The notes beneath the pieces are model-generated. The model was given only the letters and a program-made list of their open reading frames with translations, was not told where the DNA came from and did no database searches. The position numbers and the translations under genes are program-made. This document shows positions 1,350 to 64,000 of a stretch of DNA of 64,000 nucleotides, piece after piece. The DNA comes from an uncultured Planctomycetia bacterium (lineage in GTDB: Bacteria > Omnitrophota > Gorgyraeia > Taenaricolales > CAZCCH01): positions 18,307 to 82,306 of the forward strand of contig CAZCCH010000004.1 in assembly GCA_964497315.1 (NCBI GenBank). The letters run 5' to 3'. Each line of letters begins with the position of its first letter. The stretch's first letter is position 1.

Positions 1350-1361
1350 TTCTTTACTCCT

Positions 1362-3376
<2,015 letters not shown>

Positions 3377-3402
3377 TTTTAATTCACTTCGCTAGTTAAA
3401 AT

Positions 3403-4434: not shown

Positions 4435-4452
4435 TTTAAATATAGTTATTAG

Positions 4453-10089: not shown

Positions 10090-10092
10090 AGG

Positions 10093-10635: not shown

Positions 10636-10661
10636 TTAATTAAATGCCTTTTTGTTACTCT

Positions 10662-11297: not shown

Positions 11298-11344
11298 GGC
11301 TGCACCTTTTGGTTTTTGTCATCATTTTCATATTTGGCTCCATT

Positions 11345-12820: not shown

Positions 12821-12825
12821 AACTT

Positions 12826-14062: not shown

Positions 14063-15247
14063 CTATTTAAAAATATTCCCTTTCTGCCTACTCTGTTTTT
14101 TTATCCACTGGCTAATTTCTGGCCTCATGAATTCTTCAGGCGGAGTCATTCCTTCGCCAAACATCTTGCGTATCTTTGTCCCACTTATCTGGATTCTGCA
14201 GGCCTGGGGGTGAGAACAAGTTTTCTCTGTAGCTACTGCTCTACACTTTTTGCAATAAAATGGGCCGTTGAACCGCAACGGAGCAATGCCCAAGTCAGTG
14301 AAATTATCAAAAATTTTATGGGCCGCGTAGGTATCGTAGTAACCTTTTACTCCGGCATGATCCCTTCCTATAACTATGTGCGTGCAGCCGTAATTTTTCC
14401 TTACGATCGCATGAAACAGTGCTTCCCTTGGACCCGCAAACGCCATCTTCATATTAAGCGGCGCCAAAAGCACCCTTGCCTTGGGGTAATAATGTCGGAT
14501 AAGAAGCCTATAACTTTCAAGAACAAGAGTGGGAGAAAAATCGCCTTCTTTTGTCTGGCCAACTATGGGGTTTATGAATAAACCGTCCACAAATTCAAGC
14601 GCGCACCTCTGTAGGTATTCGTGTGCCCTGTGAACGGCATTTCTCGTATGAAACGCACAGATTGTCTTCCAGCCAAGCTTTTTAAAAATCTTTCTCGTCT
14701 GATGCGGGTCCATTATCATGTCCCTGAAGGGCAGCTTCGGCTTGTTTAGCAATATAATCTCACCGCCTAAAAGCACATCGCCCATTGCATCTACGGCTGC
14801 AACGCCGGGATGATCCGGATTTGCTGTACCATAGACAGCTTCACACCTCTGGGCTTTTTCATGTACGAATTTTTCTTCTACAAAAATCACCGCCACGGCT
14901 TCGTTTTGCGTGCTTGTAATAAGTAATTGTTGCCCGGACTTTATTCCGGAGGCATCTTTTTCGCTGACCGAGAACGTTACGGGTATGCTCCAAGGGGTTC
15001 CGTCTGAAAGTCTGCTTCTTTTAAGTACCGAAACATAATTCCGCTTTTTCATAAATCCGGTAAGCGGGCTAAAACCACCAACAGCAATCTGCTCTATATC
15101 AGTAAGTACATTGGTATCAACAGCAATTTTTTGCAGCTTTGCAACGTGTGCTAAAATTCTCTTTCGCTTTTTGCCTGCGGCAACTCTGTTTACTAATATG
15201 TTCTTCATGTCACATAAAAGGCCTCCCGTCCATATCCTTGAATTCAT
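14063..15247 (-). CDS. sat: Sulfate adenylyltransferase (ATP sulfurylase).
   Basis: The product is 394 aa. It has GFSPLTGFM, AFHTRNAVHRAHE (a QTRN-HRAH-type motif with Q replaced by H) and IGRDHAGV motifs. There is no fused APS-kinase domain. The start codon is uncertain; an internal Met (MKNILVNR) is an alternative. Confidence 0.8.
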   Translation of the reverse strand: MNSRIWTGGLLCDMKNILVNRVAAGKKRKRILAHVAKLQKIAVDTNVLTDIEQIAVGGFSPLTGFMKKRNYVSVLKRSRLSDGTPWSIPVTFSVSEKDASGIKSGQQLLITSTQNEAVAVIFVEEKFVHEKAQRCEAVYGTANPDHPGVAAVDAMGDVLLGGEIILLNKPKLPFRDMIMDPHQTRKIFKKLGWKTICAFHTRNAVHRAHEYLQRCALEFVDGLFINPIVGQTKEGDFSPTLVLESYRLLIRHYYPKARVLLAPLNMKMAFAGPREALFHAIVRKNYGCTHIVIGRDHAGVKGYYDTYAAHKIFDNFTDLGIAPLRFNGPFYCKKCRAVATEKTCSHPQACRIQISGTKIRKMFGEGMTPPEEFMRPEISQWIKKQSRQKGNIFK

Positions 15248-17285: not shown

Positions 17286-17300
17286 ATCGTCAATCCTGTT

Positions 17301-34183: not shown

Positions 34184-35293
34184 TTAAGAACCAACTATGT
34201 CTGTAAGTTGAGAGATAACATATTCAATCTCAATTTTTGTTAGACCAGGATATATGGGAAGTGAGATAACCTCTCTGCATAGTTTTTCTGCAACTGGGAA
34301 TTTCCCTTTCTTATATCCTGAATCCCTGTATGCGCCTTGGAGATGCAAAGGTATTGGATAATGTACCAATACCTTGATCCCTCTTTTAGAAAGTTCTTTG
34401 ATAACGTGATTACGCCTAGGCACTCTCACTACATACTGATGATATACATGTTTTGCATATGGTGCTTCTAGTGGGGTAATCACATTAGCCTTTGATCTTG
34501 TGAATAATTTATTGTAAATTTTTGCATTTAATCTTCTTTTGTTATTCCATTCGTCCAATTCATTCAACTTTATATTCAATATAGCTGCTTGAATAGAATC
34601 AAGGCGCGAATTGTAGCCTTTTATCATATGTTCATATTTTGACTTTCTGCCATAATCCCTTAAAAGCAACAATTTTTTATATATCTTGCTGTTATTGGTA
34701 ACTGCTACTCCGGCATCTCCATATGCACCTAGGTTTTTGCCTGGGTAAAGACTGAAAGCACCTATATCCGAAAAGCGCCCTACCTTTTTACCTTTATATT
34801 TTGCACCATGGGCTTGAGAAGCATCTTCGATTATCTTCAGGCCATGCCTTCTAGCTATTTTTCTGACAGAATCCATATCGCACGGTTGGCCGTATAGATG
34901 GACTGGTATAATTGCCTTTGTCTTTTTTGTGATAGCCTTTTCTATTTTATCTACATCTATGTTGTATGTTATTGGATCAGCATCTACTAGCACTGGCCTG
35001 GCACCGGTAAAGGAAATAGCCAATGCAGTAGCTATATAAGTATTCGCTGTAGTAATTACTTCATCGTTTGCGCCTATGCCTAATGCTAGAAGCGACAAAA
35101 ACAAAGACTCTGTACCGTTTGCCACTCCTACTGCATATCTAACACCGCAATATTTGGCAAATCGCTCCTCAAATATCTTAACATCAGGACCAAGTATAAA
35201 GGAACCCTTAGCTATTGCCTTCTTTACAGAAGATTCTATCTGTTTAGAAACTTTTGCGTCCTGTTTTTTTAAATCCATAAAAGCTACCTTCAC
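34184..35293 (-). CDS. DegT/DnrJ/EryC1/ArnB-family PLP-dependent nucleotide-sugar aminotransferase.
   Basis: The product is 369 aa. It has FILGPDVKIFEERFAKYCGVRYAVGVANGTESL and the PLP lysine region DASQAHGAKYKGK. Confidence 0.85.
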   Translation of the reverse strand: MKVAFMDLKKQDAKVSKQIESSVKKAIAKGSFILGPDVKIFEERFAKYCGVRYAVGVANGTESLFLSLLALGIGANDEVITTANTYIATALAISFTGARPVLVDADPITYNIDVDKIEKAITKKTKAIIPVHLYGQPCDMDSVRKIARRHGLKIIEDASQAHGAKYKGKKVGRFSDIGAFSLYPGKNLGAYGDAGVAVTNNSKIYKKLLLLRDYGRKSKYEHMIKGYNSRLDSIQAAILNIKLNELDEWNNKRRLNAKIYNKLFTRSKANVITPLEAPYAKHVYHQYVVRVPRRNHVIKELSKRGIKVLVHYPIPLHLQGAYRDSGYKKGKFPVAEKLCREVISLPIYPGLTKIEIEYVISQLTDIVGS

Positions 35294-35916
35294 TTTTTAC
35301 CTCCTGTATATGGTTTTTGTCTTTTATTTAAACCTGTTACGCACTTCAACTTTCTAACATCCTTCCTAACGCGTGCAGGATTTCCGTAAACCAGGGCATT
35401 CTTAGGAACATCTTTGGTGACTACACTCCCTGCGCCTATTAGACTATTCTCACCTATTTTCACAAAAGGCAAAATAGTTACATTTACCCCAATCTTGGCA
35501 TTCTTTTTTATAACAGGTCCTCTTTGGCATTCTCTTGAAAGCCTGCACCCAGGATGTATATCATTGGCTATGGTTACGCCCGGCGCTAAAAATACCCCAT
35601 CTTCTATTCTGGTATACTGTGCCACATAACAGTTTGAGTGTATTTTTACATCTTTTCCAATGTTACAGCCATAGTCAACAATAGAGTTGTTCCAAATTTT
35701 AAAATCATCTCCGATCTTATTCTCTTCTCTTATAACTACCCCATGACCTGTCTCTAAATTTTTACCTATGCTTGAGCCCTCATATACAACCGTTCCGCAT
35801 CTTATCTTGGCGTTTTTACCTATGCGGAGCATGCGATTCTTTATCTTCCTTGGGCAGGCATAGCCTATCTTTACGTCATCATCAATCTTAGAGGGTTTTA
35901 CGATACTAACCTTCAT
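35290..35916 (-). CDS. Left-handed beta-helix (hexapeptide-repeat) sugar N-acetyltransferase, WbpD/PglD-like.
   Basis: The product is 208 aa. Repeated [LIV]G..xx hexapeptides are visible across the length (for example IGKNLETGHGVVI and IGKDVKIHSNCYV). Confidence 0.8.
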   Translation of the reverse strand: MKVSIVKPSKIDDDVKIGYACPRKIKNRMLRIGKNAKIRCGTVVYEGSSIGKNLETGHGVVIREENKIGDDFKIWNNSIVDYGCNIGKDVKIHSNCYVAQYTRIEDGVFLAPGVTIANDIHPGCRLSRECQRGPVIKKNAKIGVNVTILPFVKIGENSLIGAGSVVTKDVPKNALVYGNPARVRKDVRKLKCVTGLNKRQKPYTGGKK

Positions 35917-36989
35917 AGCTTTACCACCTTTCCTCTGTTTCTTAGAGATTCTTCGACGGCATTTATAACCCTCACAACATCCTCTCCGTTTTTGGCATCC
36001 GAAATTGGTGTATTTTTATTTTTAATACAATCTAAGAAATGCTGACATAATAACTTCACCGGTTCTTGCAAGTCAATCTTCGGACTTACTATGTCTCCGT
36101 CCCTAAGTATATACTGAAATTCTCCGAAATTATCATAGGGCTTATCCGTAGAAATGCCTTTTTGAAAAAACTTTATCTTTTCTAAGTTGTCTAAATCGTT
36201 AAAAACAATTCTAGCATCACTTCCAACTACCCGTACTTCCCTAACCTTATTGGAATCAGCCCAGGAAACATGTATGTTGGCTATAATATTATTCTCATAT
36301 ACTAAGTTGATAAAAGCTACGTCTTCACGTCCTTCCTTGAGATAAGTTCCTCCAATAGCAGAAACCTCAACTGGGTTACTATCTAAAAGGAAGGAAAATA
36401 TAGAAATATCATGGGGTGCTAAATCCCAAACGGCATTCACGTCTTCTCTTATAAGTCCTAAATGCGTCCGCGTAGAATGTAGGTAGTATATCTGGCCAAG
36501 TTTTCCTTCTTTTATGTATTCTTTCATCTTTGCAATAGCTGGATTATACAAAAAAGTATGGGATACCATCAGCATAACATTCTTTTTTTTTGATAGCCCG
36601 CCTAGTTCTTGACATTGCCTGTAATCAAGGGTCAGGGGTTTTTCTACTAAGGTATGCTTGCCTGCCGATATAGATTCCTTTGCAAGTTGGTAGTGAGTTT
36701 TTGTTGGGGTCGCTATCACAATCGCATGAATCTCATCGTTTGAAAGCAAATCTTTATAATCTGTTGTGGTATTAACATTATGAAACTGCTGTTTAATCTT
36801 TTTTAATTTACTTTTATCCAGGTCGCAGCAGAAAAGCACATCTAAGTCATCCAAAGAGTTGAAATTTCTGATATAGTTCGGTCCCCAATGTCCACAACCT
36901 ATGACGCCAACGTTAATCATTTCATATCCTCCTATTTCCTGCAAATTCCAATAAATCCCGCAAAATCCCTGCTCTTTCATTAAATACAC
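35913..36989 (-). CDS. Gfo/Idh/MocA-family NAD-dependent nucleotide-sugar oxidoreductase (WbpB/GnnA-like).
   Basis: The Rossmann opening is INVGVIGCGHWGPNYIRNF. The likely true start is the internal MINVGV Met near 36920, which removes the overlap with the upstream gene. Confidence 0.8.
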   Translation of the reverse strand: MYLMKEQGFCGIYWNLQEIGGYEMINVGVIGCGHWGPNYIRNFNSLDDLDVLFCCDLDKSKLKKIKQQFHNVNTTTDYKDLLSNDEIHAIVIATPTKTHYQLAKESISAGKHTLVEKPLTLDYRQCQELGGLSKKKNVMLMVSHTFLYNPAIAKMKEYIKEGKLGQIYYLHSTRTHLGLIREDVNAVWDLAPHDISIFSFLLDSNPVEVSAIGGTYLKEGREDVAFINLVYENNIIANIHVSWADSNKVREVRVVGSDARIVFNDLDNLEKIKFFQKGISTDKPYDNFGEFQYILRDGDIVSPKIDLQEPVKLLCQHFLDCIKNKNTPISDAKNGEDVVRVINAVEESLRNRGKVVKL

Positions 36990-51593: not shown

Positions 51594-53444
51594 TTATAAA
51601 TACCCTTTCCAGAAGTAATAAATAATGCTTACGTATTCATGTATAATGGCGCGTATGTGCTTGGCCATCACAACTTTTCTGTCGGCAAAAAATAGACTAT
51701 GGGATACTGGAGCATAGGTAACAACCAAATGAGGAGCTATTTTTTTATAAATTAAGGATACCCTCCTCATATGATAAGGCGAACTCACTACAAGAACTTT
51801 CTTCCAATTATAAGAAAAGGCTATCTTATTAGTGTAGAGCACATTTTCATATGTGCTGGCTGCCTCTTTATCCAGTAAAATAACGCCTGCAGGAACCCCC
51901 ATAGAAATGGCCAAATCTTTCATTTTCTCTGCTTCTTGCAGCATATAAACATAGCCCGAAGAAAATACCAAATAATCCACAAAACCTCTTTTATACAAGC
52001 TTACGGCATGCGCAACCCTTTCTTCATACCCCTGCCCTGCCTGTCCTGACTCACCTACTCCTCCGGCAAAGACTACAGCGGCATCTGCTGATGCCGGAGG
52101 CTGTCTTATTTCTAAAGGCCTTGCAATAAACCACAAAAACTGTGTATGGAATAACAATAAATAGGCTAAGATACATATTGCGGCTATTCTGACTGTCTTT
52201 TTCCGAGATGCCCTGTAAAATTGCAGTAGGCTTTCTTTCCACAGCAGGTCTTTACCACGCTTCCTCTCTTCTACTGCCTGTTCTATCAAATTACTCATTT
52301 GATCAATCCTGTTCTTCCAGGTATTCTCATGGGCTATCTCAATCTTTCTTTGTATGTCTTCTTCGCGATTCACGTCTTCAACCGCATTCCTGATACCCTC
52401 AGTAAAATCTTTGGAGGTTTTACACATAGAAACCACATCCTTATATCGCTTATTGAACTTTTCTATTTCTGGAAGATCTGTAGATACCACCGGCTTACCA
52501 AGAGCCAAATATTCGTTTAGCTTGGTAGGATAGACATTCATTGTATAATCTGTTAGGATATACGGAATTATTCCCACATCAAATAAATTAACATAATATG
52601 GCAATTGTTCATGAGGCTTATGTCCTAAGAAATAGACATTTTTTATTTTTGATAACTTAGAAACGTTTTCTTGAAGCGGGCCCACGAAAACAAAAGAATA
52701 ATGCGGAAATTCCCTAGCCAAACTTCCAATTAAATCTTGATCAACCCACTTATGTATGCCGCCTACATAACCAATTACAGGACCTTTAATTTTTCTTAAG
52801 TCTTCGGGAACATAAGGCTGTTCTTCAAGCCTTGTCTTATCAAAATTTTCAATGTTTACGCCAAAAGGAAATTTATAAACTTTTTCATTGTATGCCAAAC
52901 AGTAATTATACAGCTCTTCTGCCGTAACAAATACAACATCTGCCTGTGAAATGAAATTTTGCTCTGACCGTTTTATTTTATGTACTGCTGGCGAACTTGC
53001 AGAAAAATTATCAATACAATAATAAATACTAACTTTAACATCCAGACTGTTAATAAGATCTAACGATAACGCTGTAGGTAAAAATGACCATACGACAACA
53101 TCGTTAAAACCCATAACCTTCGTCCATTTTCTTAAATTAGTCAATAATAGCCTTTTATTAATCCATCTTGCTATGCGTGAATATGGGAATGGTAATACTA
53201 CAGGTGAAAACACATAGAGATTTTCTCTTTCTTTTCTTATGCCGCTAATACCCCTGCGCCAGTTAAGTAAACGTTTTTTTAAACGTGGTAAATCTCGCAA
53301 TCTTGGTACCCTAACACCCGTATTTTCTATAAAAAGGACTCTATTACCATTATCTGCCAACCTAGACATTATTTCTTGATGCCCCTGCCAGATAAAATCC
53401 CAATCTATAGAAGATATGCATATAATATTTTCATTCTTTAGCAT
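51594..53444 (-). CDS. Fusion: GT4-type glycosyltransferase (N) plus membrane segment plus DUF218 (SanA/YdcF/ElyC-like) domain (C).
   Basis: The product is 616 aa. It has a TuaH-like opening ICISSIDWDFIWQGHQEIMSRLA and GT-B features in the N-terminal part. A TM helix follows near aa 410. The C-terminal DUF218 block is VVFAGGVGESGQ...VVSSPYHMRR. Confidence 0.6.
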   Translation of the reverse strand: MLKNENIICISSIDWDFIWQGHQEIMSRLADNGNRVLFIENTGVRVPRLRDLPRLKKRLLNWRRGISGIRKERENLYVFSPVVLPFPYSRIARWINKRLLLTNLRKWTKVMGFNDVVVWSFLPTALSLDLINSLDVKVSIYYCIDNFSASSPAVHKIKRSEQNFISQADVVFVTAEELYNYCLAYNEKVYKFPFGVNIENFDKTRLEEQPYVPEDLRKIKGPVIGYVGGIHKWVDQDLIGSLAREFPHYSFVFVGPLQENVSKLSKIKNVYFLGHKPHEQLPYYVNLFDVGIIPYILTDYTMNVYPTKLNEYLALGKPVVSTDLPEIEKFNKRYKDVVSMCKTSKDFTEGIRNAVEDVNREEDIQRKIEIAHENTWKNRIDQMSNLIEQAVEERKRGKDLLWKESLLQFYRASRKKTVRIAAICILAYLLLFHTQFLWFIARPLEIRQPPASADAAVVFAGGVGESGQAGQGYEERVAHAVSLYKRGFVDYLVFSSGYVYMLQEAEKMKDLAISMGVPAGVILLDKEAASTYENVLYTNKIAFSYNWKKVLVVSSPYHMRRVSLIYKKIAPHLVVTYAPVSHSLFFADRKVVMAKHIRAIIHEYVSIIYYFWKGYL

Positions 53445-53457
53445 AACTGCCCACTTT

Positions 53458-54786
53458 TCACTTTATAGCTTCTTCCAGCACTTCCTTTAACTGTCTCGTA
53501 AGCCGTCTTCTGTCAAATTTTTTCACAATATAATCATTTATCTTTCTGTTTTGGTCTTCTCCTGCCTTGTACTTGCTATAGAATTCATACACTGCATTGC
53601 TAATAGCCTTGATATCCTCTGGAGAAACAACTTTGCCGCATTGAACTTCTTGAACAACTTCACTGATAGCTCCCTTGTTACACAAAGCCAAAATAGGACG
53701 TCCTGCCCCAATATAATCAAAGATTTTAGCCGACAGAAATCTATGTGCAATTTCTACTTGGTCCTCTATAAACAAGAGAAGGTCGCTGCTAATCATACGG
53801 CTCAAGGTATCCCTGTAACTCAAGAATCCAGAAAAGGAAACGATTTTCTTAAGTATCGGGCTATTAACTAATGAGATTATCTCTGGTTCAATGTCACCTA
53901 TAAATGAAAGATTTATGTCATCTGCGATGTGCGGGTTTTTACTTATTAAATTCTCCAAGCCCATAAGAAAATACTTAGGTGAGCGGTGCTTGTAAAGAGA
54001 ACCAGCGCATATAATAGAAAATTTCTCTTTTCTACTGATTTTAACGTTAGTAAAATCATCAAGATCAAAACCGTTTGTGATACAAACAAATTTATGTTCA
54101 TAAGCCCTGTATCTTCTTCTAAAATTTTCTACAATGGGCTCTGTTACAGATATGACTGTATCAGAGTTTTTAATTACAAATCTCTCCATATTCTCTTCTA
54201 TCTTGCATCTTAGCTTTTTCTTCTGTGGGAAAAAATACCTATTAAATTCAACCCATTCATCGCGAAAGTCAACAATAAGAGGCTTGCGGGTGATGAATTT
54301 CAATAAGACCCCTGTAAGAAAGCTGGAAAATGGCTCTCCCGTTGCATAGATAACATCTACTTTCTCATTTTTTATGACTGAGCTACCTTTTAATACTGCA
54401 AATGGAATCCAACCCACCCTTGTATCCGGAATCAGTATCCACCACTTTAGTTTTGATAAAAAAGAATAGAATATGTCTTTAATCATGCTAAATTTTTTGG
54501 TGGTTTTGGTATTCTCTGGTTTTAGGATGTTTGATATACGGTTATTAGATTCTATGGAATTAGTTCTGATAATTTTAATATCCTGGGGTATTTCATTTAT
54601 TAAATCGTAATCGTACACCGAAACAGACGGTTTCTTAACCGTCAAGACAATGGGTTCCCATTCGAATTCTTTTAAATATTTTACGAATTTTAATATCCTT
54701 CGTACTCGGCCTCCCCCAACAGGTGGGAAGCTATATGCTATCATCAATATCTTTTTCATATTGCCACTATTTAAAATATCTTTCAT
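53458..54786 (-). CDS. GT4 glycosyltransferase.
   Basis: The product is 442 aa. It has the N-terminus KKILMIAYSFPPVGGGRV and the C-terminal GT-B nucleotide-binding half. Confidence 0.7.
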   Translation of the reverse strand: MKDILNSGNMKKILMIAYSFPPVGGGRVRRILKFVKYLKEFEWEPIVLTVKKPSVSVYDYDLINEIPQDIKIIRTNSIESNNRISNILKPENTKTTKKFSMIKDIFYSFLSKLKWWILIPDTRVGWIPFAVLKGSSVIKNEKVDVIYATGEPFSSFLTGVLLKFITRKPLIVDFRDEWVEFNRYFFPQKKKLRCKIEENMERFVIKNSDTVISVTEPIVENFRRRYRAYEHKFVCITNGFDLDDFTNVKISRKEKFSIICAGSLYKHRSPKYFLMGLENLISKNPHIADDINLSFIGDIEPEIISLVNSPILKKIVSFSGFLSYRDTLSRMISSDLLLFIEDQVEIAHRFLSAKIFDYIGAGRPILALCNKGAISEVVQEVQCGKVVSPEDIKAISNAVYEFYSKYKAGEDQNRKINDYIVKKFDRRRLTRQLKEVLEEAIK

Positions 54787-56671
54787 GCCAATTAGTTAGG
54801 CACAAGAGGCTCCATATGTGATTTGAATCCATAAGTGCACTCTTAAACAACCCATCAATCTTTTTTTTATCAACAACCCCCAATTCATAAAGTGCTCCTG
54901 AATTAAGTGATTCCTCAATATAGCTCTTCAATGATCTACTTGCCCACAATTTAAAAGGAGTATTAAAACCAACCTTATCTTTTCTGTTAAGAATTGCATC
55001 AGGGAGGAGGTCTTTACCAGCTTCCCTTAGGACCTTTTTGGTTGCTAAATTTCCAATTTTTATCTCCTCTGGTATAGAAAAAGCCAGCTCAGCAATTCTG
55101 TAATCCAATAACGGAGATCTTGCCTCAACCGATGAAACCATGCTAATTCTATCATCTACGTGTAATAACGCAGGTAAATAAACCTTGAAATCAAAATATA
55201 GCATTTTATCCAAAATCCCGGCTCTATGACCTTTATTAAAAATTTGCAAAAATCTTTCGATTTGGCTCTTTTGTCTATTCCTTATAAAATCTTTCATATA
55301 AAAATGTTTTTGTCTGTTCATCGTGTTCATTAAATAGTAGTATCTTCTACCTAAATCACAACCAGACCTTGTAGCCAGAAACGTCAATAATTCTTTAATT
55401 GTAACTTTTGAAAAAATGCTCTTTGCTGCAGATAACACCGCCTTTCTCTTCTTTAACGACCTTATAAATATCTCCTCTGAATATGTCCTAATGTATCTAT
55501 GGTAACCTCCAAAAAGTTCATCTCCTCCTTCACCGCCAAGCAAAACTTTAACATGCGCCCTTGATGCCTCTTTTGCAATAAAATGCTGTGCGTACATGCC
55601 GGGGCCGCCTGCCGGTTCATCAAGATGCCAAATTAGATCTGAGAAAATACGTGAAAAATCCTCTGTGGATGGAATAACTTCGTTATATTTAATATTAGTC
55701 TCTTTAGCTAAAAGTCTTGCATAATGAGATTCGTCATATTGGGGATCCTCTGTAAATCTTCCGTTAAAACTTGTGATAGACTTGGGGGATTCTCTCGTCG
55801 CAATCATCCCAACAATACTTGAGTCTATACCTCCGCTTAATGAGAGACCAACAGATACGTCAGACCTTAACCTTAATCTTACAGAATCATATAATAAATC
55901 CTTTAATTGAATCGCATAATCTTCTTCAAGTCTATTCTCATAATTAAATTTAATATCCCAATAACGAGCGCTTTTAACATTATCTTTGGTAATTACGAGA
56001 TAATGTGCGGGTTTTAGCTTTTTTATGCCTTTAAAGAATGTAGCATCGCCAAGTGAAAACTGAAATGAAAGATAATCATAAATTGCATCTAGCTCTGGAG
56101 TTTTCTTAAAATTATCATATTCCAAAATTGACTTTATCTCGGAAGCAAATAAAATTTTGTCAGGGCCTATGGAATAATATAGCGGTTTTATGCCAATTCT
56201 GTCTCTTGCTAAAAATAATGATTTTTGTTTGCAGTCCCAAATTGCGATTGCGAACATACCGTTAAAACGCTGTAAGCAATCCACTCCAAATTCTTCATAA
56301 GCATGCAGGATTACTTCTGCATCTGTCTTTGTCTTAAATATATGCCCCTTACTTTTAAGAAAACTCTGCAGTTCAATATAATTATAAATACATCCATTAA
56401 ATACTAACCACACAGACCCATTCTCGTTGCTCATCGGCTGCTTAGCCGATTCAGATAAATCTATAATGCTCAGCCTACGATGTCCCAGTCCTATATCTCT
56501 GTCTTTATAAAACCCTTCATTGTCAGGGCCTCTGTGTGAAAGCATTGCTGTCATTCTTTTTAAAGACAGCTCATCGACATTCTTTCCATTTCGGTTATAG
56601 ATTCCGGTTATGCCGCACATATGTTTATTTCTCCAGAAAAATATAGAGGAAAAACCCAAATCTTTTTTCAA
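54767..56671 (-). CDS. Asparagine synthetase B-family amidotransferase, second paralogue.
   Basis: The mature start is probably the internal MCGITGIY near 56620, because the catalytic Cys must follow the initiator Met. It has the PP-loop SGGIDSS. Confidence 0.85.
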   Translation of the reverse strand: MKKDLGFSSIFFWRNKHMCGITGIYNRNGKNVDELSLKRMTAMLSHRGPDNEGFYKDRDIGLGHRRLSIIDLSESAKQPMSNENGSVWLVFNGCIYNYIELQSFLKSKGHIFKTKTDAEVILHAYEEFGVDCLQRFNGMFAIAIWDCKQKSLFLARDRIGIKPLYYSIGPDKILFASEIKSILEYDNFKKTPELDAIYDYLSFQFSLGDATFFKGIKKLKPAHYLVITKDNVKSARYWDIKFNYENRLEEDYAIQLKDLLYDSVRLRLRSDVSVGLSLSGGIDSSIVGMIATRESPKSITSFNGRFTEDPQYDESHYARLLAKETNIKYNEVIPSTEDFSRIFSDLIWHLDEPAGGPGMYAQHFIAKEASRAHVKVLLGGEGGDELFGGYHRYIRTYSEEIFIRSLKKRKAVLSAAKSIFSKVTIKELLTFLATRSGCDLGRRYYYLMNTMNRQKHFYMKDFIRNRQKSQIERFLQIFNKGHRAGILDKMLYFDFKVYLPALLHVDDRISMVSSVEARSPLLDYRIAELAFSIPEEIKIGNLATKKVLREAGKDLLPDAILNRKDKVGFNTPFKLWASRSLKSYIEESLNSGALYELGVVDKKKIDGLFKSALMDSNHIWSLLCLTNWHERYFK

Positions 56672-57574: not shown

Positions 57575-59014
57575 TTAATGCAACAGGGAATATCCATAAT
57601 GTTTGACTCTATCCTTCCACCAACCGGCAATCTCATTCGGCAAGGCTACCCAGGCATTCTCTTTTGATAAATACTCCAGTATGTTTTTATAGACTTCAAT
57701 CCACCCGGGATATGCCTTAGTATCCCAAACCCTTAAATGCCACAGTATGCACGCAAAGCCGTTAAACTCTTTAATCTTCTCTAAAATCTGTATACATTTT
57801 CTTGTGGCTTCTTCGACTCCAAAATTTAATTCCATAAATAACGCGCTATCCATTATCACAAGTGGTAGCTCCAGAATCATATGCGCTCTTTTTAATGTCC
57901 GGTTATAAGGAAAAAATGGGAAGGCCGCTCCAGCACGGAAACCAAGGGCCTCATTATAGCCTAAAGACATATCATATTCAATACCGCTCTCGCGTTGGAC
58001 ATCCCAAGTTTTTTGATAGTCCAACCTGAGATAATGCTGACAAATACCTCCTACTTTATTCTTGATCACTCTTTCAAGCATATTCTTTTCTTCGGACAAT
58101 TTATCCTTATCAAGATAGCTCTCGTAGCTTCCGTGCAGACCTATTTCCCATCCACGTGCCTTTATTAATTCCATTATCTTAATAATTCTTGAATTATATA
58201 TCGAATATGTTGGATCATAAAGAATATTGCCCTGGTCAATTAAGGATGCAAAATTAAAAATAGACTTAAATCCGTATTTCCCCTCAAGTTTAATATAATC
58301 CTGAAAATTACAATATGGGTCTTTCAACTTAAAAGCTTTGTATATGAAACCCCAGATTATATGCTTGGTAGCCTGCTTTATTCCTTTAAACTTGTGTGCA
58401 TAACGCTTGAGCATATTAAGGCCTGAGTAAATATCTCCCTTAAATGGCTGATCCACATCATGTATAAGGCAAACTGAGAATTTCTTATTATCTTTATTTA
58501 AAGCTGTATAATCAAACTCCGCAGGAAACAATTTATCTAAAAGCTGCTTGAGAAGAAACGCGTAACTATTGACTACTGGAAAATCCAAAACTCCTAATTT
58601 TTTTAAAATTGTATAATTTCCAGAAAAACACCCCCAGGTATCGCGCCTTTTGTCTAACCTTTCTTCCTCGCGAGATAATAAATAAAAACTAGCTGCAATG
58701 ATATCAAATGTCAGATTGATTGCCTCATCTTCATAAAAATAAAGCGAGTCTCGTTTGGGCTTTTCTACGTACATTACAGGTATTCCATCTCGCCAATCTA
58801 GGGAAGGTTGATTCTCTAGCCATTTTTGATAATTGTCCGATGGAATTCCGATAGACTTCTCTTTGGCTTTGTAGCCATAACACAGGTGAGCCTTTTCATC
58901 GTCTCTTACAATTTTAAAACAAATACCCAGAACATAACCGTAGGTTTGGAAAATATATCTTGCCTCTTTTGCAAATGATAACTCTGGGTTAATTTTTACG
59001 TTTATAGTCTTCAT
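57575..59014 (-). CDS. ArnD/NodB-like polysaccharide deacetylase-domain protein, paralogue of the C-terminal module of 29308..31422.
   Basis: The product is 479 aa. It has CLIHDVDQPFKG and IGLHGSYESY motifs, colinear with the C-terminal domain of the 704-aa fusion. Confidence 0.5.
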   Translation of the reverse strand: MKTINVKINPELSFAKEARYIFQTYGYVLGICFKIVRDDEKAHLCYGYKAKEKSIGIPSDNYQKWLENQPSLDWRDGIPVMYVEKPKRDSLYFYEDEAINLTFDIIAASFYLLSREEERLDKRRDTWGCFSGNYTILKKLGVLDFPVVNSYAFLLKQLLDKLFPAEFDYTALNKDNKKFSVCLIHDVDQPFKGDIYSGLNMLKRYAHKFKGIKQATKHIIWGFIYKAFKLKDPYCNFQDYIKLEGKYGFKSIFNFASLIDQGNILYDPTYSIYNSRIIKIMELIKARGWEIGLHGSYESYLDKDKLSEEKNMLERVIKNKVGGICQHYLRLDYQKTWDVQRESGIEYDMSLGYNEALGFRAGAAFPFFPYNRTLKRAHMILELPLVIMDSALFMELNFGVEEATRKCIQILEKIKEFNGFACILWHLRVWDTKAYPGWIEVYKNILEYLSKENAWVALPNEIAGWWKDRVKHYGYSLLH

Positions 59015-60018
59015 GCGTCCTTATACATAAATTTTCTATATACCCTCTTCAATGACTGTACTCCTTTAGATCTTAAGCTCATAGCTTTGCTTATCTGGTA
59101 ATGCGGGATAAGCCTGACTCCAAACGTACTTTTGTAATCTGCTATGGTCTCTATATCTGCGCCCACGAAGTCTGTAATTGAATAATGCGGGGTTATTTTT
59201 TCCAAAATTTCCTTTACTATAAGCTGGTTGCCTCCAGTATTTAACAGTTGTGGATTGGAAGCAGCCATCCAATAAAAAAGCCTGTCATCATCTATTAAAA
59301 GAATTGCTCCGGAAATAACTCTATTATCTCTTGTTTTTGCTAAAAGCAGCTTGATGGATGATTTAGCAAAAAGATCTTTAAAAAAATCTAAAAATTTATC
59401 TTCGTCAAGATTTATGCATATTTTTTTCTTGCTAAACATTTGCTTCCATAAAATATAAAACTCTTTTATATCTTTGCTGTCTTCAATAAATACCCCATTA
59501 TCATGGGCATAAGCAGCTCGTCTTTCGATGTCTCTGCTGAGAGGTATTTCGTCGTTTTTGTTTCTGTAGTAAGTATATCGGACCGCGGTAGACCACCTCC
59601 TCCATATAAATGGCCTTATGTCCAAAAATCCTGGAGAATTAATAATAGTTACATAATCAAAGTTGTCTTCCAGGTAATCAATAATGCCATTCGATATGTC
59701 TTTGACATCGTTTTCAGACTTATAGTTATACTTTAGTGCTTTCAGCTCCACAATCAGGCCATTATATGGCGTAAGAAAAGGAACTTCTGCTATTCTGCCT
59801 TCCAGAGATTGCCTTACTCTTAAGCAACATCCCCCTACAATTCTCTCTCCTGAATAACAACACACAATCTTGAGATTTTGATTTGTCGCATGAGCAAATG
59901 AATCATTCCATAAAGATGAGTAAAATATTGGGCTTTTCGAATGTTGTTTAATAAAGTCTTCCCATCTGTCTAAGTCTTTACTTTGCAATTCTTTTACTAT
60001 ATATTTATTAGAATTCAT
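59011..60018 (-). CDS. Putative GNAT-fold FemAB/Acetyltransf_6-like (BioF2-like) acyl- or aminoacyl-transferase.
   Basis: The product is 335 aa. This is a weak family-level match only, resting on size, predicted fold pattern and the frequent presence of this family in exopolysaccharide loci. Confidence 0.3.
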   Translation of the reverse strand: MNSNKYIVKELQSKDLDRWEDFIKQHSKSPIFYSSLWNDSFAHATNQNLKIVCCYSGERIVGGCCLRVRQSLEGRIAEVPFLTPYNGLIVELKALKYNYKSENDVKDISNGIIDYLEDNFDYVTIINSPGFLDIRPFIWRRWSTAVRYTYYRNKNDEIPLSRDIERRAAYAHDNGVFIEDSKDIKEFYILWKQMFSKKKICINLDEDKFLDFFKDLFAKSSIKLLLAKTRDNRVISGAILLIDDDRLFYWMAASNPQLLNTGGNQLIVKEILEKITPHYSITDFVGADIETIADYKSTFGVRLIPHYQISKAMSLRSKGVQSLKRVYRKFMYKDA

Positions 60019-60938
60019 AGGACCTTATAGCTCTCAAAAAGCAAGTTATGATCTTGGCATCCAACCAACAATCTATTCTTCTTCATCGATATTATGTCGC
60101 CTATCTCTGATTCCTTTTTACCCAAATCACGTTTTATTATCCTGGGTTCTCCGACCAGTATTTTTCTGTTATTCGAGATAATATAGGTTTTAACAAACGG
60201 TGTTGATGCCCTGAAACATCTGCAAATATCTGCAGCGGATTTATTCAAGTCAAGAAATTGGTCTTCGACATTTTTATAATATGACTCCCTGTCCTTGCCC
60301 TGCGCTATCCGTTTAACACTACCATTGGCAATAGAATTTAAAACTGAGCGTACGTTCCTACCTGCTAATTTGGCACATTTCTCTGCGAGGCTGCCTGCTG
60401 TATCATTAATATCTATACTAACCTTATCTTTCAATATAATGTCACCTGTATCTATGCCAAGATCTATATAATGGAATGTAAAACCTGTTTCTTGCTCATC
60501 GTTAATTATGATCCAATAAAAGGGGTTGGGACCCCTGAATTTCGGTAGTAATGACGGGTGGCAATTTATGCATCCATAACGCGGAAAGTTTATCAGGGTG
60601 CTTGATAATCTTTCTTCCCAGCCTGCAACTAAAATTAAATTCACATGCTTCCTTTCCAGTAAGTGGCGAAATGAAGGACTATTAGTGGACTCAGTAATAA
60701 TTATAGGAACTTTAAAACGGGTCACAGCTGCATACAACTTATTACTTCTAAAATTAAAGCGTAGTTTTAGAAATAAAGAAATTCGGAATAAGGTTTTGCG
60801 AATCACACTAATCTTGAAACGTACAGCATAACTTTTAGGAATGAGAAATGTTATGCCCTTTACATTATGTCCTGAAGTCACGATGGGATCGATTAAATAT
60901 CTGGCCCATTCAACGCCAAAGAATAAAACAATATTCAT
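60015..60938 (-). CDS. Formyltransferase-domain protein (ArnA-N / sugar N-formyltransferase-like).
   Basis: The product is 307 aa. The core CHPSLLPKFRGPNPFYWIIINDEQETGFTFHYIDLGIDTGDIILK aligns to the formyl_trans_N motif, with the catalytic His and Asp. The N-terminal ~90 aa are atypical. Confidence 0.65.
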   Translation of the reverse strand: MNIVLFFGVEWARYLIDPIVTSGHNVKGITFLIPKSYAVRFKISVIRKTLFRISLFLKLRFNFRSNKLYAAVTRFKVPIIITESTNSPSFRHLLERKHVNLILVAGWEERLSSTLINFPRYGCINCHPSLLPKFRGPNPFYWIIINDEQETGFTFHYIDLGIDTGDIILKDKVSIDINDTAGSLAEKCAKLAGRNVRSVLNSIANGSVKRIAQGKDRESYYKNVEDQFLDLNKSAADICRCFRASTPFVKTYIISNNRKILVGEPRIIKRDLGKKESEIGDIISMKKNRLLVGCQDHNLLFESYKVL

Positions 60939-61669
60939 CTCACCTTCCTAAATAATAGCACCATCTCTGAAAAATCCTGCCTAAATAATGAATTAAAAGA
61001 ACTTGGGATTTTATTTGCGGAAATAAAAAGGTTATATCCACAAAATGGGCATATCGTGCGCATTGGCCTTCTCTCTGATCTATTGAAAACAATCTGTTTC
61101 AGACGCATTGTCAGATCATGCAATTTAAAACGTGGTGGTTCGCAGTACTTGAAATCCAAAAGTTCAAAATTTGGAAAAATTTCCAATATACTATCCTTGG
61201 TAAAACTCCTTGCGTGCCAGTTTAAATGAAATACCTCACCACATCCGGGACACTTTGTGGTGTTTAAGGTTATATCCTCGTTGTTGGGTACATTAATAAG
61301 TATATATTTGCTACTTAGTGCCTGCACCTGACTTATGACCCTGGATAAAAGCTCATCGCTTAAATGTTCTAGGATATCGCTCAGTAAAATTAAATCAAAT
61401 GTGCCCTTCTTGAACGGGAGATTCTCTGCGGCAGCCTGTAATTTCTTTGCTTGTACATGTATCAATGCCTCTATGCTAAAATCGATAGCGACAACATCAA
61501 ATCGTTTTGCTAATGGATTACATATGATACCGTCACCGCACCCAACATCAAGTACGGTTTTCACATCATCCGGTATAGTAAGGTTAATAGCATTTAACCT
61601 GCTTACCTCATGATCACCTATCTCTGCAGCGCTTTTCCCATCGCGAGGCAAGTCATAGTATGTCAGCAT
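60935..61669 (-). CDS. Class I SAM-dependent methyltransferase.
   Basis: The product is 244 aa. It has the motif I VLDVGCGDGIICNPLAKRF and C-terminal CxxC pairs (CPGCG...CPFCG). Confidence 0.6.
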   Translation of the reverse strand: MLTYYDLPRDGKSAAEIGDHEVSRLNAINLTIPDDVKTVLDVGCGDGIICNPLAKRFDVVAIDFSIEALIHVQAKKLQAAAENLPFKKGTFDLILLSDILEHLSDELLSRVISQVQALSSKYILINVPNNEDITLNTTKCPGCGEVFHLNWHARSFTKDSILEIFPNFELLDFKYCEPPRFKLHDLTMRLKQIVFNRSERRPMRTICPFCGYNLFISANKIPSSFNSLFRQDFSEMVLLFRKVR

Positions 61670-62628
61670 AATGATTTCTCTCGATTATTAATTAGATCAA
61701 ACTGCAATGACTGTTTTAACCTCCAAAAAAACCACATCCTATAAATAGACATCTTCTCTCTCATAGTTTTATCATGCGGAGACCATCTATCTGCAGCACC
61801 CTTAAAGGCTTCCTCTCTTGTGATATCGTAAAGGGATAACAATAGGCAAAAATTAAATTTATTATACATTCTATCCGACAATTTTTTTCCAGGATAATAC
61901 CAACTCCACAAGTTATTAAAATTCCAAATAGATATCTGCCTGGTTAGGGTATTAATGCCTTCATCAAACAAAATTTTTGCTCGGCTGGAATTTGTGTATT
62001 TAAATGCATCGTATAAACCCAATAGAGCGACCAAAAAACCGTCTAATATGCGTACTGAATCATTGGTGCCATGATATTCTTCATAAAATACAAGTCCTTC
62101 TCTTTTAGACTTCACGCCACCATCTCTTACTTCTGTCTCAAATAAATTTAAGATATTCTCAAAATCCTCAATATATCTTTCATCATTTTTAAGTCTATAA
62201 ACCCTACTCAATAAACTTAACGCCATGCCATGACCCATAGCTGATATCCAAGGAGGCGTAAGTAAAATTCCGTCTTCCACCCAAGGATAGTCATGAGCCC
62301 AAAAACAACCCCTCTTATTATCTCTCGAAACATTTTTTATAAGCCAATCTGCTTGCTTATAGGTTTTTCTAAGCCATTTTTCTGACTTATTTTTCAAATA
62401 GCTCTGCAAGCAAAATATTCCCCATATAGCAACAAATAAATAGTTTCGCTGGACTCCAATAGGAGATTTGTATTTTCTTAAAGGAATTTTATCTTCATCG
62501 AAAGTCAGGTGAAAATAATCTGCAACATCCATGCCTGTAAAGTCAACATAATAATTTATGTCTCCTGATGCATCTGACACATGTAAGGGAAAATCTAAAT
62601 TTAGGTAATTTCTGAGCATCTTAAGCAC
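61663..62628 (-). CDS. D-glucuronyl C5-epimerase C-terminal-domain homologue (C5-epim_C).
   Basis: The product is 321 aa. WISAMGHGMALSLLSRVY matches metazoan GLCE WISAMAQGQAIS.LVRAY. YEEYHGT...ILDGFLVALLGLYD matches YEEYPTT..VLNGFMYSLIGLYD. RWSPHD matches RWKSY. Confidence 0.55.
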   Translation of the reverse strand: MLKMLRNYLNLDFPLHVSDASGDINYYVDFTGMDVADYFHLTFDEDKIPLRKYKSPIGVQRNYLFVAIWGIFCLQSYLKNKSEKWLRKTYKQADWLIKNVSRDNKRGCFWAHDYPWVEDGILLTPPWISAMGHGMALSLLSRVYRLKNDERYIEDFENILNLFETEVRDGGVKSKREGLVFYEEYHGTNDSVRILDGFLVALLGLYDAFKYTNSSRAKILFDEGINTLTRQISIWNFNNLWSWYYPGKKLSDRMYNKFNFCLLLSLYDITREEAFKGAADRWSPHDKTMREKMSIYRMWFFWRLKQSLQFDLINNREKSLC

Positions 62629-63731
62629 GCCGGGTATACTCCATTTCTTTTTAACTTTTTCCTAAAATCACGGAAATTGCTATTATTCCATATAAATCTA
62701 AAGCTTGACTTATGGATATTTCCAAAAACAACATTAAAGCAACGCATTCTAGGGATTACTTCACCTCTTGCTGTAATCTGCGCCATAACCCAAGGAGACT
62801 GACACCTACTGCCATCATATAGAACTTTTTCCGGATCGCAATAATAAGTACCTAAAAGATCTCTACTAAGTATCTTAGTATAAATCCTAATTCCTGAGGC
62901 CCTCCCCAGTTTCTTAGCATCTTTTAACTGCTGTAAAAGTACGGGGATATCAATTCTGTCCAAATCTTGACCATTAATACCACTCTTAGAAACAGTAATA
63001 TCAGGGTGCTTTAAGTTATGTTTCTGTGCAACCTCCTCAGTTATAAAGTTTAAATGCGAAAAAGTAATTGAAGATAACCCTTTTTCCTTTATAGCTTCTA
63101 CTGTTTCTACTAAATTATGAAAATTTGAGTTTGAAATCGTATATATTATGTGCATTTTAGGACTTCGAATGCCGTATTGTTTTTTAAAGTGCTTTATTCT
63201 TTCAATGCCATCTAGGATTTGTTCATATATCCCTATTTTTCCGCGAATTTTCTCATGCACGGCCTTTGTGCCATCTAGTGAAATAAAAATATCGTCAAGC
63301 TTTAATTTTACAAGTGACTCTGCATGCCTGACCAAAAACACCCCATTTGTCGTCAGGCTGCAATGCAACACATTCTCTTTTACATAACCGACAATTCTGG
63401 CTATATCAGGGTGCAAGAGAGGTTCACGAGAAGTCAAAGAGATTGAAGGTTGGAAAAATTTCACGTTATCAACTATATTCTTAAAGTTATCAAATGAAAG
63501 AATTGCGTTTTCGCTTACGGTTCCGGCGTTTTTTGTAAAGGTAGAACTTGGCAAATTCTTAGCCGCATCGCACATCTCGCATCTTAAATTGCAAGTGGTA
63601 TTAACGGCTATGAATAATACTGATGGGGATAAAGCGCGCCCGTTACCAAGATAGTAAAACACTCTTTTATTTAATTCGTACCTAGCTTTGGAATAAAGCT
63701 TACCGTAATTGATATTAATGAGTTTACGCAT
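62601..63731 (-). CDS. Radical SAM enzyme (SPASM/twitch-like C-terminal Cys).
   Basis: The product is 376 aa. It has the N-terminal cluster motif NTTCNLRCEMCD and the C-terminal cysteines CQSP....CLRCSE. Confidence 0.75.
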   Translation of the reverse strand: MRKLININYGKLYSKARYELNKRVFYYLGNGRALSPSVLFIAVNTTCNLRCEMCDAAKNLPSSTFTKNAGTVSENAILSFDNFKNIVDNVKFFQPSISLTSREPLLHPDIARIVGYVKENVLHCSLTTNGVFLVRHAESLVKLKLDDIFISLDGTKAVHEKIRGKIGIYEQILDGIERIKHFKKQYGIRSPKMHIIYTISNSNFHNLVETVEAIKEKGLSSITFSHLNFITEEVAQKHNLKHPDITVSKSGINGQDLDRIDIPVLLQQLKDAKKLGRASGIRIYTKILSRDLLGTYYCDPEKVLYDGSRCQSPWVMAQITARGEVIPRMRCFNVVFGNIHKSSFRFIWNNSNFRDFRKKLKRNGVYPACLRCSEIT

Positions 63732-64000
63732 GATATGAGCTAAATAAGTTTGTGCATCTGTAACCAGCTGGAAATAGTTTGTTTTTCCTAAGGCGCTTTC
63801 TAAATTCTTTATACGGCTTGCCTAACCATATATCTTTGAAATCTTTTTCATTTACATTGCCCATTTTTAAGCCGAAACACTTAAAGCCTGGCGTCACATC
63901 GCCATTGGGTAATAGCCAACAGTATTTCCACGGATAATAACAGCGGTTAAAATGGCTTACCGGCTCTAGGTGCTTTTTATAATAGGTGATGAGGTCATCG
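63724..64000 (-). CDS. C-terminal SPASM-domain fragment of a further radical-SAM-type protein (gene continues beyond the window end).
   Basis: The reverse-complement frame reads ..CYYPWKYCWLLPNGDVTPGFKCFGLKMGNVNEKDFKDIWLGKPYKEFRKRL..RCTNLF..*. Its stop overlaps the start of the 62601..63731 gene. It is not in the ORF track because it has no in-window start. Confidence 0.5.
   Translation of the reverse strand, partial: DDLITYYKKHLEPVSHFNRCYYPWKYCWLLPNGDVTPGFKCFGLKMGNVNEKDFKDIWLGKPYKEFRKRLRKNKLFPAGYRCTNLFSSYHA

Follow-up and report, generated by a model that had tools for sequence, protein, structure and literature searches.

The subject of this analysis is a stretch of 64,000 nucleotides, referred to as the window, from contig CAZCCH010000004.1 of an uncultured Planctomycetia bacterium (assembly GCA_964497315.1, positions 18,307 to 82,306) that GTDB places in the Omnitrophota. 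Its minus strand encodes, at 61663..62628, a protein of 321 amino acids (aa) that, judged by its sequence, is a cytoplasmic, single-domain prokaryotic member of the C5-epim_C family, to which the animal D-glucuronyl C5-epimerase of heparan sulfate (GLCE) also belongs. The protein falls in a subgroup of this family, here termed Asp-type, in which replacement of the GLCE residue N510 by Asp is coupled to replacement of H582 by Asn. The most persistent partner of Asp-type epimerases is an AsnB-like amidotransferase, and the linkage is obligate-looking. We place the probability at roughly 0.55 that the Asp-type protein is a cytoplasmic C5-epimerase that converts a lipid-linked acylamino-uronic acid to its L-configured form, which is later amidated.

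Family membership of the epimerase

The open reading frame (ORF), its length, and the motifs quoted for it in an initial annotation of this DNA (PPWISAMGHGMALSLLSRVY, FYEEYHGTNDSVRILDGFLVALLGLYD, and ADRWSPHD) were all recovered. The homology to the heparan sulfate epimerase acting on glucuronic acid (GlcA) that had been proposed there also holds. The protein scored 117.9 bits against PF06662 (C5-epim_C), for which the cut-off is 23.3; with an E-value of 4.9e-34 and a match to positions 20-187 of the 188 in the profile, this is far beyond chance. A phmmer search with the single sequence matched the zebrafish (4pw2) and human (6hzz) GLCE structures at E~1e-10. A family profile derived from an alignment of the query and 29 relatives (A1) matched the GLCE chains 4PW2 and 6HZZ with E-values of 4e-57 and 1e-55, respectively. 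The match spans chain residues 308-523, which correspond to residues 398-613 of human GLCE and cover the whole catalytic barrel, plus a weak stretch at human residues 194-229. A scan of the protein against NCBIfam returned no matching model. The protein has neither a signal peptide nor a transmembrane segment (maximum KD19 = 1.4). The designation of the protein as metazoan-type did not survive, since it is a single domain of 321 aa without the beta-hairpin and beta-sandwich domains of GLCE (the barrel alone aligns, with a TM-score of 0.36 when normalised to GLCE length) and has no signal anchor.

Bacterial homologues had further been called rare and sporadically characterised, and only the latter applies, in that Bermanella alone has provided a characterised enzyme. 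When 1.84 billion representatives of 50%-identity clusters were searched exhaustively with a profile, 6,755 of them matched at E<=1e-3, most with a length of 280-350 aa, and 2,968 matched at E<=1e-30. A review from 2011 had already listed PF06662 homologues across many bacteria and archaea, located them in loci for O-antigens and capsules, and suggested specificities that differ from clade to clade (PMC3068255). Such genes are routinely labelled 'D-glucuronyl C5-epimerase family protein' by the Prokaryotic Genome Annotation Pipeline (PGAP). A plasmid collection contained just ~25%-identical matches, from Priestia and Deinococcus, under this generic name, and the exact sequence of the window protein was seen on metagenome scaffolds only. 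It should be noted that the start codon is ambiguous: the GTG at 62628 yields the 321-aa product and a 28-nt overlap with the upstream gene, and an in-frame ATG at 62619, three codons in, yields a 318-aa form (P0001), which is the version found in public metagenomes or produced by other gene callers.

Fold and catalytic residues

An AlphaFold model computed on alignment A1 (predicted local distance difference test score 94.4, predicted TM-score 0.92) places a GLCE-like alpha-helical barrel in the protein with high confidence. When this model was compared with the PDB by Foldseek, the top eight matches were all GLCE chains, with a root-mean-square deviation (rmsd) of 1.9-2.2 Å over ~211 columns (E~1e-12), followed by AGE-type epimerases and GH76 proteins at E~1e-4 to 1e-5. 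The check by fold prediction that the initial annotation had named thus came out as a GLCE-like barrel.

A comparison of catalytic residues with those of GLCE had also been set beforehand. The key residues of GLCE are E499, Y500, N510, Y560, and Y578 (PMC13308652), of which Y578 is the base that removes H5 and E499 the acid that re-protonates the substrate from the other face (PMC12834895). According to the alignment, the equivalents in the window protein (ORF numbering) are E184, Y185, D196, Y244, and Y255, respectively, with N259 at the position of H582, such that four of the five catalytic residues are kept and the fifth, N510, is an Asp. Across 177 relatives, the equivalents of E184 and Y244 are each present in 174 proteins and that of Y255 in 173; the Y500 position holds Tyr in 138 and Phe in 14. 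That the acid/base pair and both auxiliary tyrosines are near-invariant across the subgroup argues for a retained GLCE-type proton transfer.

The Asp-type subgroup and its gene associations

Among the 177 family members, the residue equivalent to N510 is Asn in 150 and Asp in 25. The position of H582, part of the sequence 'YHTTH' in GLCE, is Asn in 22 of the 25 Asp-type proteins and never in Asn-type proteins. The query and all of its close relatives are Asp-type (with 'LDGF' and 'YNKFN'). A neutral substrate was also considered on the basis of net charge, an idea that the medians for the domain (+3.2 for Asp-type and +0.4 for Asn-type proteins, a crude comparison) do not support.

To retrieve loci from genomes, an alignment of the Asp subgroup was needed, as a scan of genome contigs with the single epimerase protein gave no match. 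Scanned against one genome per GTDB species, the subgroup alignment identified 22 loci at 28-35% identity, 21 of Asp/Asn type and one (L036) of Asn type, in Nitrospirota, Methylomirabilota/Rokubacteria, Gemmatimonadota, and Acidobacteriota. All 22 are from metagenome-assembled genomes (MAGs), leaving no cultured organism with a known glycan structure as an anchor for the substrate.

An AsnB-like gene is located at +1 to +3 kb from the epimerase in 13 of these 22 loci and within 9 kb in 16. When loci are compared by type, an AsnB-like neighbour accompanies 20 of 27 Asp-type epimerases and none of six Asn-type epimerases (L012-14 and L036-38; Fisher p=0.0015), counts that are not phylogenetically independent. 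Other frequent neighbours of Asp-type epimerases include a 2-epimerase and a TuaH-like glycosyltransferase (GT), the latter a fusion of GT1 and DUF218 domains that recurs near Asp-type epimerase/AsnB pairs, at +3 to +7 kb in 10 MAG loci (tblastn). Additionally, an exosortase is encoded within 8 kb in 8 of 21 Asp-type MAG loci, and the GLCE-fold epimerase is a recurrent, apparently unlisted accessory of PEP-CTERM/exosortase loci. The window itself encodes no exosortase (XrtA/EpsH), EpsI, or PrsK. In Nitrospirota and NC10 genomes, the gene order is Asp-type epimerase, AsnB-like amidotransferase, TuaH-like GT1, exosortase/EpsI, and PrsK histidine kinase, with beta-helix proteins on the flanks of the block. 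Examples are L031:9908-17878 and L016:10118-17791, and further cases are L015, L022, L025, L027, L029, and L030. The exosortase in these blocks is XrtA/XrtD-like with an EpsI domain, and both exosortase and PrsK score above the curated NCBIfam cut-offs.

Gene neighbourhood of the epimerase

The features discussed here are listed in Table 1. As the initial annotation had reported, the epimerase gene adjoins radical S-adenosylmethionine (SAM)/SPASM enzymes: one complete gene (paralogue A) and a second that is cut by the edge of the window. A third tandem paralogue lies just beyond the window (L001:5019-6137). The three are 31-40% identical among themselves. The best solved relatives of paralogue A are the cytosylglucuronate decarboxylase BlsE (4e-9) and BtrN (5e-7), both weak matches, but consistent with chemistry on a sugar and not on a peptide; BlsE decarboxylates at C5 of a glucuronate. 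Still further upstream are genes for Wzx, a UDP-GlcNAc 2-epimerase, and a hexapeptide acetyltransferase.

Table 1. Coordinates and supporting evidence for genes of the window discussed in the text.
Feature	Position	Strand	Evidence
C5-epim_C (GLCE-fold) Asp-type protein, 321 aa	61663..62628	-	Pfam, profile, residues, model, Foldseek
Radical SAM/SPASM enzyme, paralogue A; overlaps epimerase start	62601..63731	-	PF04055 + PF13186
Second radical SAM/SPASM paralogue, C-terminal 91 aa; cut by window edge	63727..64000	-	tblastn 100% over residues 321-411 of L001 gene
SAM-dependent methyltransferase; overlaps epimerase stop	60935..61669	-	Methyltransf_23/25/11; syntenic in all close relatives
Fmt/ArnA-like N-formyltransferase	60015..60938	-	Formyl_trans_N + Formyl_trans_C; best PDB matches Fmt (2e-25), ArnA, sugar N-formyltransferases
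FemAB/VimA-like acyl- or aminoacyl-transferase	59011..60018	-	PF13480 E=2.7e-7; TIGR03019 pepcterm_femAB E=3.5e-6, weak
VimE-like deacetylase (DUF7033)	57575..59014	-	PF23019; NF053580 match
AsnB-like glutamine amidotransferase (WbpS/PEP-CTERM type)	54767..56671	-	Asn_synthase + GATase; TIGR03108 454 bits, below cut-off
GT4 glycosyltransferase, in VimF's position of the Vim pathway	53458..54786	-	Glyco_transf_4 / Glyco_trans_1_4
TuaH-like GT1 fused to DUF218	51594..53444	-	PF00534 + PF02698; NF047676 TuaH E=9e-37, below cut-off
WbpE-like aminotransferase, WbpD-like hexapeptide acetyltransferase, WbpB-like 3-dehydrogenase	34184..36989	-	DegT E=1e-122, Hexapep, GFO_IDH_MocA
PriA (housekeeping block)	5394-7397	-	

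On the other side of the epimerase, genes for a methyltransferase, a formyltransferase, a VimA-like protein, and a VimE-like protein are followed by a second methyltransferase and then the AsnB-like gene. The VimE-like protein matched NF053580 ('UDP-2,3-diacetamido-2,3-dideoxy-GlcA deacetylase VimE') over positions 65-430 of 431 (E=2e-42) with 145 bits, below the 440-bit cut-off, and phmmer searches with the VimA-like and VimE-like proteins gave no matches in the PDB. TIGR03108, the model for the XrtA/PEP-CTERM amidotransferase, is matched better by a second AsnB-like protein of the window (45019-46962) than by the one in Table 1 (655 versus 454 bits, cut-off 817). A trio of WbpE-, WbpD-, and WbpB-like genes elsewhere in the window would supply a 2,3-diacetamido sugar, to judge by the families of its products, with the WbpB-like protein matching the UDP-GlcNAc 3-dehydrogenase model NF040723 at 184 bits, below its cut-off.

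Many of these genes travel together. The radical SAM/SPASM genes are syntenic with the epimerase in L003, L006, L008, L009, and L010, and GT4 is syntenic in L006 and L008 at 39-48% identity (tblastn). The whole cassette, comprising 2-epimerase, Wzx, two to three radical SAM/SPASM enzymes, C5-epim_C protein, methyltransferase, formyltransferase, VimA-like, VimE-like, and AsnB-like proteins, and GT4, is kept around homologues that are only 45-55% identical to the epimerase (L006, L008, and L009), indicating that it is a conserved functional unit. Tblastn searches with the window proteins found the radical SAM, VimA-like, and VimE-like genes to be limited to these close relatives. A more distant Asp-type homologue (P0011, 33% identical) directly follows WbpD, WbpE, WbpB, WbpA, and Wzx. 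Related cassettes also carry transglutaminase-core genes (L006:2779-3495 and L008:1-693). In Bordetella, WbmE, a member of the transglutaminase superfamily, is a periplasmic uronamide deamidase that occurs alongside the AsnB-like proteins WbmC, WbmI, and WbmZ (PMC2615507), and with this precedent the transglutaminase-core genes support uronamide chemistry in these loci.

Other genes of the window

All 64 kb of the window are transcribed on the minus strand, with a GC content of ~36%. Positions 165-13,000 are largely given to housekeeping functions, including PGK, GAPDH, two GalT/HIT-like proteins, Fmt, PriA, UDG, a GT resembling monogalactosyldiacylglycerol synthase, a homocysteine methyltransferase, and a HAD protein. 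The nearest named relatives of PriA (54-58% identity) all come from Candidatus Omnitrophota MAGs, and an uncultured bacterium of this phylum or of a neighbouring one is thus the probable source of the window. The two GalT/HIT-superfamily proteins are tandem paralogues (2378-3376 and 3403-4434) that resemble DUF4921/DUF4931, one of them with a weak match to the N-terminal domain of Ap4A phosphorylase. A 491-aa ORF (11345-12820) matches only the C-terminal half of the pyruvate kinase barrel (profile positions 182-328 of 328), the rest being without a Pfam match, and is followed by a gene resembling CDP-glycerol glycerophosphotransferases (12826-13983). The ATP sulfurylase gene (14063..15247) adjoins this block. 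Beside it, within 14063-19199, are genes for a 691-aa protein of the Phosphodiest family and a 632-aa protein of the Sulfatase family, which may be LtaS/EptA-like transferases of phospho-substituents rather than sulfatases.

The rest of the window is a very large glycan array that encodes approximately ten distinct GTs, Wzy_C, an MsbA-like exporter, a GT9 heptosyltransferase, a polyprenyl synthase, two AsnB-like amidotransferases, several methyltransferases, and four B12-binding radical SAM proteins (46997-48442, 27890-29311, 26471-27877, and 20229-21668). If the three SPASM enzymes are counted as well, radical SAM enzymes are unusually dense here for a polysaccharide locus, which may reflect C-methylations. 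A 594-aa fusion protein (40083-41867) joins an N-terminal polyprenyl-phosphate N-acetylhexosamine-1-phosphate transferase of the WecA/MraY type (PF00953) to a C-terminal part that corresponds to CoA_binding_3, the N-terminal region of phosphoglycosyltransferases of the WbaP/WcaJ type (TIGR03025 positions 2-225); their catalytic domain is missing.

Proposed function and alternatives

Homology, fold, conserved catalytic residues, the Asp/Asn signature, and gene associations are the observations from which we infer a substrate, a stage (lipid-linked or nucleotide sugar), an order relative to amidation, and the activity itself. Y255 would take H5 from a hexuronic acid to give an enolate, and E184 would re-protonate the enolate from the opposite face, resulting in inversion at C5. 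The substrate is more likely to be a 2-amino or 2,3-diamino hexuronic acid in N-acylated form, produced by the Wbp- and Vim-like enzymes of the array, and is probably not GlcA in a heparosan-like chain; the neighbours, as far as their families tell, fit a 2,3-diamino-hexuronic acid and not a glycosaminoglycan (GAG). UDP-GlcNAc3NAcA would be converted to the manno form by the 2-epimerase encoded just upstream of the window, and the VimE-like protein would carry out an N2-deacetylation, after which the sugar would be re-acylated or formylated. Epimerisation would yield the C5 epimer in the L configuration, with D-manno giving L-gulo or D-gluco giving L-ido, and the AsnB-like amidotransferase would then turn the carboxyl group of this product into a uronamide. 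By analogy with VpsJ and Agl32, the epimerisation would take place on an undecaprenyl-diphosphate-linked intermediate at the inner membrane face, prior to flipping by Wzx. Action on the polymer in the periplasm, as by AlgG, was rejected because the protein has no signal peptide.

Several observations weigh against this proposal. A UDP-sugar 6-dehydrogenase of the WbpA/Ugd/WecC type was not found in the window and the 9 kb upstream of it (73 kb), and the formation of the uronic acid is therefore not encoded locally. One of the five listed catalytic residues of GLCE, N510, is replaced, and a close relative (P0004) has Ile at the position of Y500. Support for calling one protein VimA-like is weak (E~1e-6 to 1e-7), and the VimE-, WbpB-, TuaH-, and TIGR03108-like matches are all below curated NCBIfam cut-offs, such that these proteins are homologues and not established equivalogs. 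The co-occurrence with AsnB-like genes is subject to the shared ancestry of the loci counted, and the Asn-type controls number just six. Finally, the overall charge of the proteins does not separate a neutral from an anionic substrate.

A serious alternative, though one that we rate as only possible, differs from this proposal in stage only: C5 would be epimerised not on a lipid-linked residue but on a soluble UDP-sugar (e.g., UDP-ManNAc3NAcA to UDP-L-GulNAc3NAcA) or on the already amidated uronamide. In the latter case, the changes from Asn to Asp and from His to Asn would adapt the pocket for a carboxamide in place of a carboxylate. The location of the gene within a block of nucleotide sugar-tailoring enzymes (radical SAM, methyltransferase, formyltransferase, and VimA- and VimE-like), and not beside Wzy or a ligase, is consistent with such a stage, as is the route via UDP-L-iduronic acid that has been proposed for E. 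coli O112ab with the PF06662 protein 'Gae' (PMC7685785, PMC3068255). The tight coupling to the AsnB-like protein and the coupled active-site signature can be read in the same way, and on general chemical grounds an amide has a somewhat more acidic alpha-proton than a carboxylate anion has. However, GLCE, which has the same fold, and the analogues VpsJ and Agl32 all act on glycosidically bound residues and not on nucleotide sugars, the carboxyl group of Vibrio polysaccharide (VPS) is amide-modified after epimerisation, and overall charge is uninformative on this point.

It is unlikely that the protein is a GLCE fold repurposed for something other than epimerisation, whether as a lyase, a hydrolase, another enzyme that abstracts a proton, or a non-catalytic carbohydrate-binding or scaffold subunit for the adjacent radical SAM enzymes. 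Such barrels of the (alpha/alpha) type do host lyases, hydrolases, and 2-epimerases (Foldseek matches included GH76, polysaccharide lyases, AGE, and unsaturated glucuronyl hydrolase), one listed catalytic residue is changed, and the archaeal Agl32 illustrates that the family of a protein and the residues of its active site do not always agree. The gene is also always preceded by radical SAM/SPASM genes in close relatives, with an overlap at its start in the window. Yet most distant Asp-type loci retain the epimerase without those partners, one would not expect to meet a degradative lyase in the cytoplasm and inside a biosynthetic operon, and the acid/base pair and both auxiliary tyrosines would hardly be kept as they are.

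Most improbable of all, in our estimate, is the reading to which the initial annotation had inclined, that of an epimerised and possibly sulfated GAG-like polymer. Here, a heparosan-type epimerase would convert GlcA to iduronic acid (IdoA) in a GAG-like [GlcA-GlcNAc]n chain, which would then be sulfated via 3'-phosphoadenosine 5'-phosphosulfate derived from the ATP sulfurylase of the array. The GLCE homology is true and the residues for proton transfer are kept, the one bacterial homologue that has been tested biochemically, from Bermanella, epimerises desulfated heparin (PMC13308652, PMC12834895), and an Asn-type relative (L014) has a sulfotransferase-like neighbour. The sulfurylase gene is likewise real (PF01747, E=9e-86, plus a PUA_2 domain) but sits beside housekeeping genes, at a distance of 46 kb from the epimerase gene. 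No sulfotransferase or adenosine 5'-phosphosulfate kinase domain was detected in any minus-strand ORF of >=150 aa in the window, nor were an N-deacetylase/N-sulfotransferase or a UDP-glucose dehydrogenase detected there. Since sulfotransferase and kinase are missing and the sulfurylase is among housekeeping genes, sulfation of a GAG was rejected. A GAG-like polymer as such fared no better. The protein is cytoplasmic and lacks the N-terminal domains of GLCE, its active site differs from those of GLCE and of the Asn-type majority at two coupled positions, and its conserved partners are an amidotransferase and enzymes that tailor diamino-uronic acids. Wzx, Wzy_C, and many different GTs are typical of a complex repeat unit, and the locus has the form of a Wzx/Wzy heteropolysaccharide array and not that of a two-enzyme GAG synthase.

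If cytoplasmic C5-epimerisation of an acylamino-uronic acid is correct, the GLCE fold is used well beyond the conversion of GlcA to IdoA, and a subgroup comprising ~14% of the sampled family epimerises N-acylated amino-uronic acids in the cytoplasm, together with an amidotransferase. It would offer a concrete candidate for the origin of uronamides and of (di)acetamido-uronic acids in the L configuration. The glycan pathways of Wbp/Vim and of PEP-CTERM/exosortase systems would gain a step, and chemo-enzymatic synthesis of glycans would gain epimerases that are compact and soluble and have an altered specificity. If it is wrong, the gene is just another 'D-glucuronyl C5-epimerase family protein' of routine annotation within a polysaccharide locus. 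A farther-reaching idea, which we regard as doubtful, is that the Asp-type C5-epim_C protein and its AsnB-like partner form an unrecognised two-enzyme module that makes a C5-epimerised acylamino-uronamide as the 'linking sugar' or acceptor for sortase-like systems, and that it also supplies the missing enzyme class for the L-configured 2,3-diacetamido-uronic acids of O-antigens. The linking sugar of such a module would serve exosortase/PEP-CTERM systems in Nitrospirota and NC10 and the Vim-like pathway in the bacterium studied here.

Comparison with known systems

With GLCE, the window protein shares the catalytic alpha-helical barrel (25-26% identity, rmsd 1.9 Å) and the equivalents of E499, Y500, Y560, and Y578. 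GLCE itself is a dimeric, Golgi-lumenal protein of 617 aa that also has a beta-hairpin and a beta-sandwich domain and takes up hexasaccharides or longer chains in a long basic cleft, whereas the window protein has 321 aa, is predicted to be cytoplasmic, lacks both beta domains, has Asp for N510, Asn for H582, and 'YNKFN' for 'YHTTH', and stands in a gene context that is not GAG-like. The prokaryotic PF06662 candidates of Raedts et al. (2011/2013), from Bermanella marisrubri RED65, E. coli O112ab ('Gae'), V. cholerae, and Photorhabdus (wblE), belong to the same family, are of ~300-450 aa, and are encoded in surface polysaccharide clusters; the O-antigen of E. coli O112ab contains L-IdoA (PMC3068255; PMC7685785). 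Only the Bermanella enzyme, of 448 aa, has been tested, and it acts on heparin-like GlcA. Many of these candidates are reported to have signal peptides, unlike the window protein. Neither the Asp/Asn signature nor a link of such epimerases to AsnB-like, Wbp/Vim, and exosortase genes was found in the PF06662 literature examined, the Asp or Asn type of the candidates not having been compared, and this distinctive partnership is apparently undescribed.

The closest functional precedent is VpsJ of V. cholerae, a proposed C5-epimerase that converts ManNAcA to L-GulNAcA. In the VPS pathway, ManNAcA is formed by a 2-epimerase and a dehydrogenase and put on the lipid carrier, where VpsJ acts in the cytoplasm to yield L-GulNAcA, and only then is the carboxyl group amide-modified (PMC13463779). 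A 2-epimerase, C5 epimerisation, amide modification, and a Wzx/Wzy pathway would, by inference, be common to both systems. The amide donor differs, being glycine in VPS, via the adenylate-forming enzyme VpsH, and ammonia or glutamine here, via the AsnB-like enzyme. VpsJ has been reported without informative sequence relatives, its likeness to AGE-type 2-epimerases being structural only, and it is probably not a PF06662 protein. Agl32, the GlcA C5-epimerase of the Halobacterium salinarum N-glycan, is likewise a single alpha-helical domain and acts on a short lipid-linked glycan before flipping; however, none of the catalytic residues of GLCE is present in it, and its mechanism is presumed to be another one, whereas the window protein keeps four of five.

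The pathway nearest in gene content is that of Wbp/Vim in Porphyromonas and Tannerella, in which VimE deacetylates UDP-GlcNAc3NAcA at N2, VimA adds an aminoacyl group, and WbpS, which is AsnB-like, amidates C6 (PMC7468200). The window has VimE-like, VimA/FemAB-like, WbpS/AsnB-like, GT4, and WbpB/D/E-like genes, though a WbpA-type dehydrogenase is missing from the window and the 9 kb upstream of it; in turn, the described pathway has no C5-epimerase, and the window further adds a formyltransferase, two methyltransferases, and three radical SAM/SPASM enzymes. The exopolysaccharide loci of exosortase/PEP-CTERM systems, finally, resemble this one through their epimerases: although the window is without an exosortase, distant Asp-type homologues of its epimerase are encoded beside an XrtA-type exosortase, EpsI, and PrsK.

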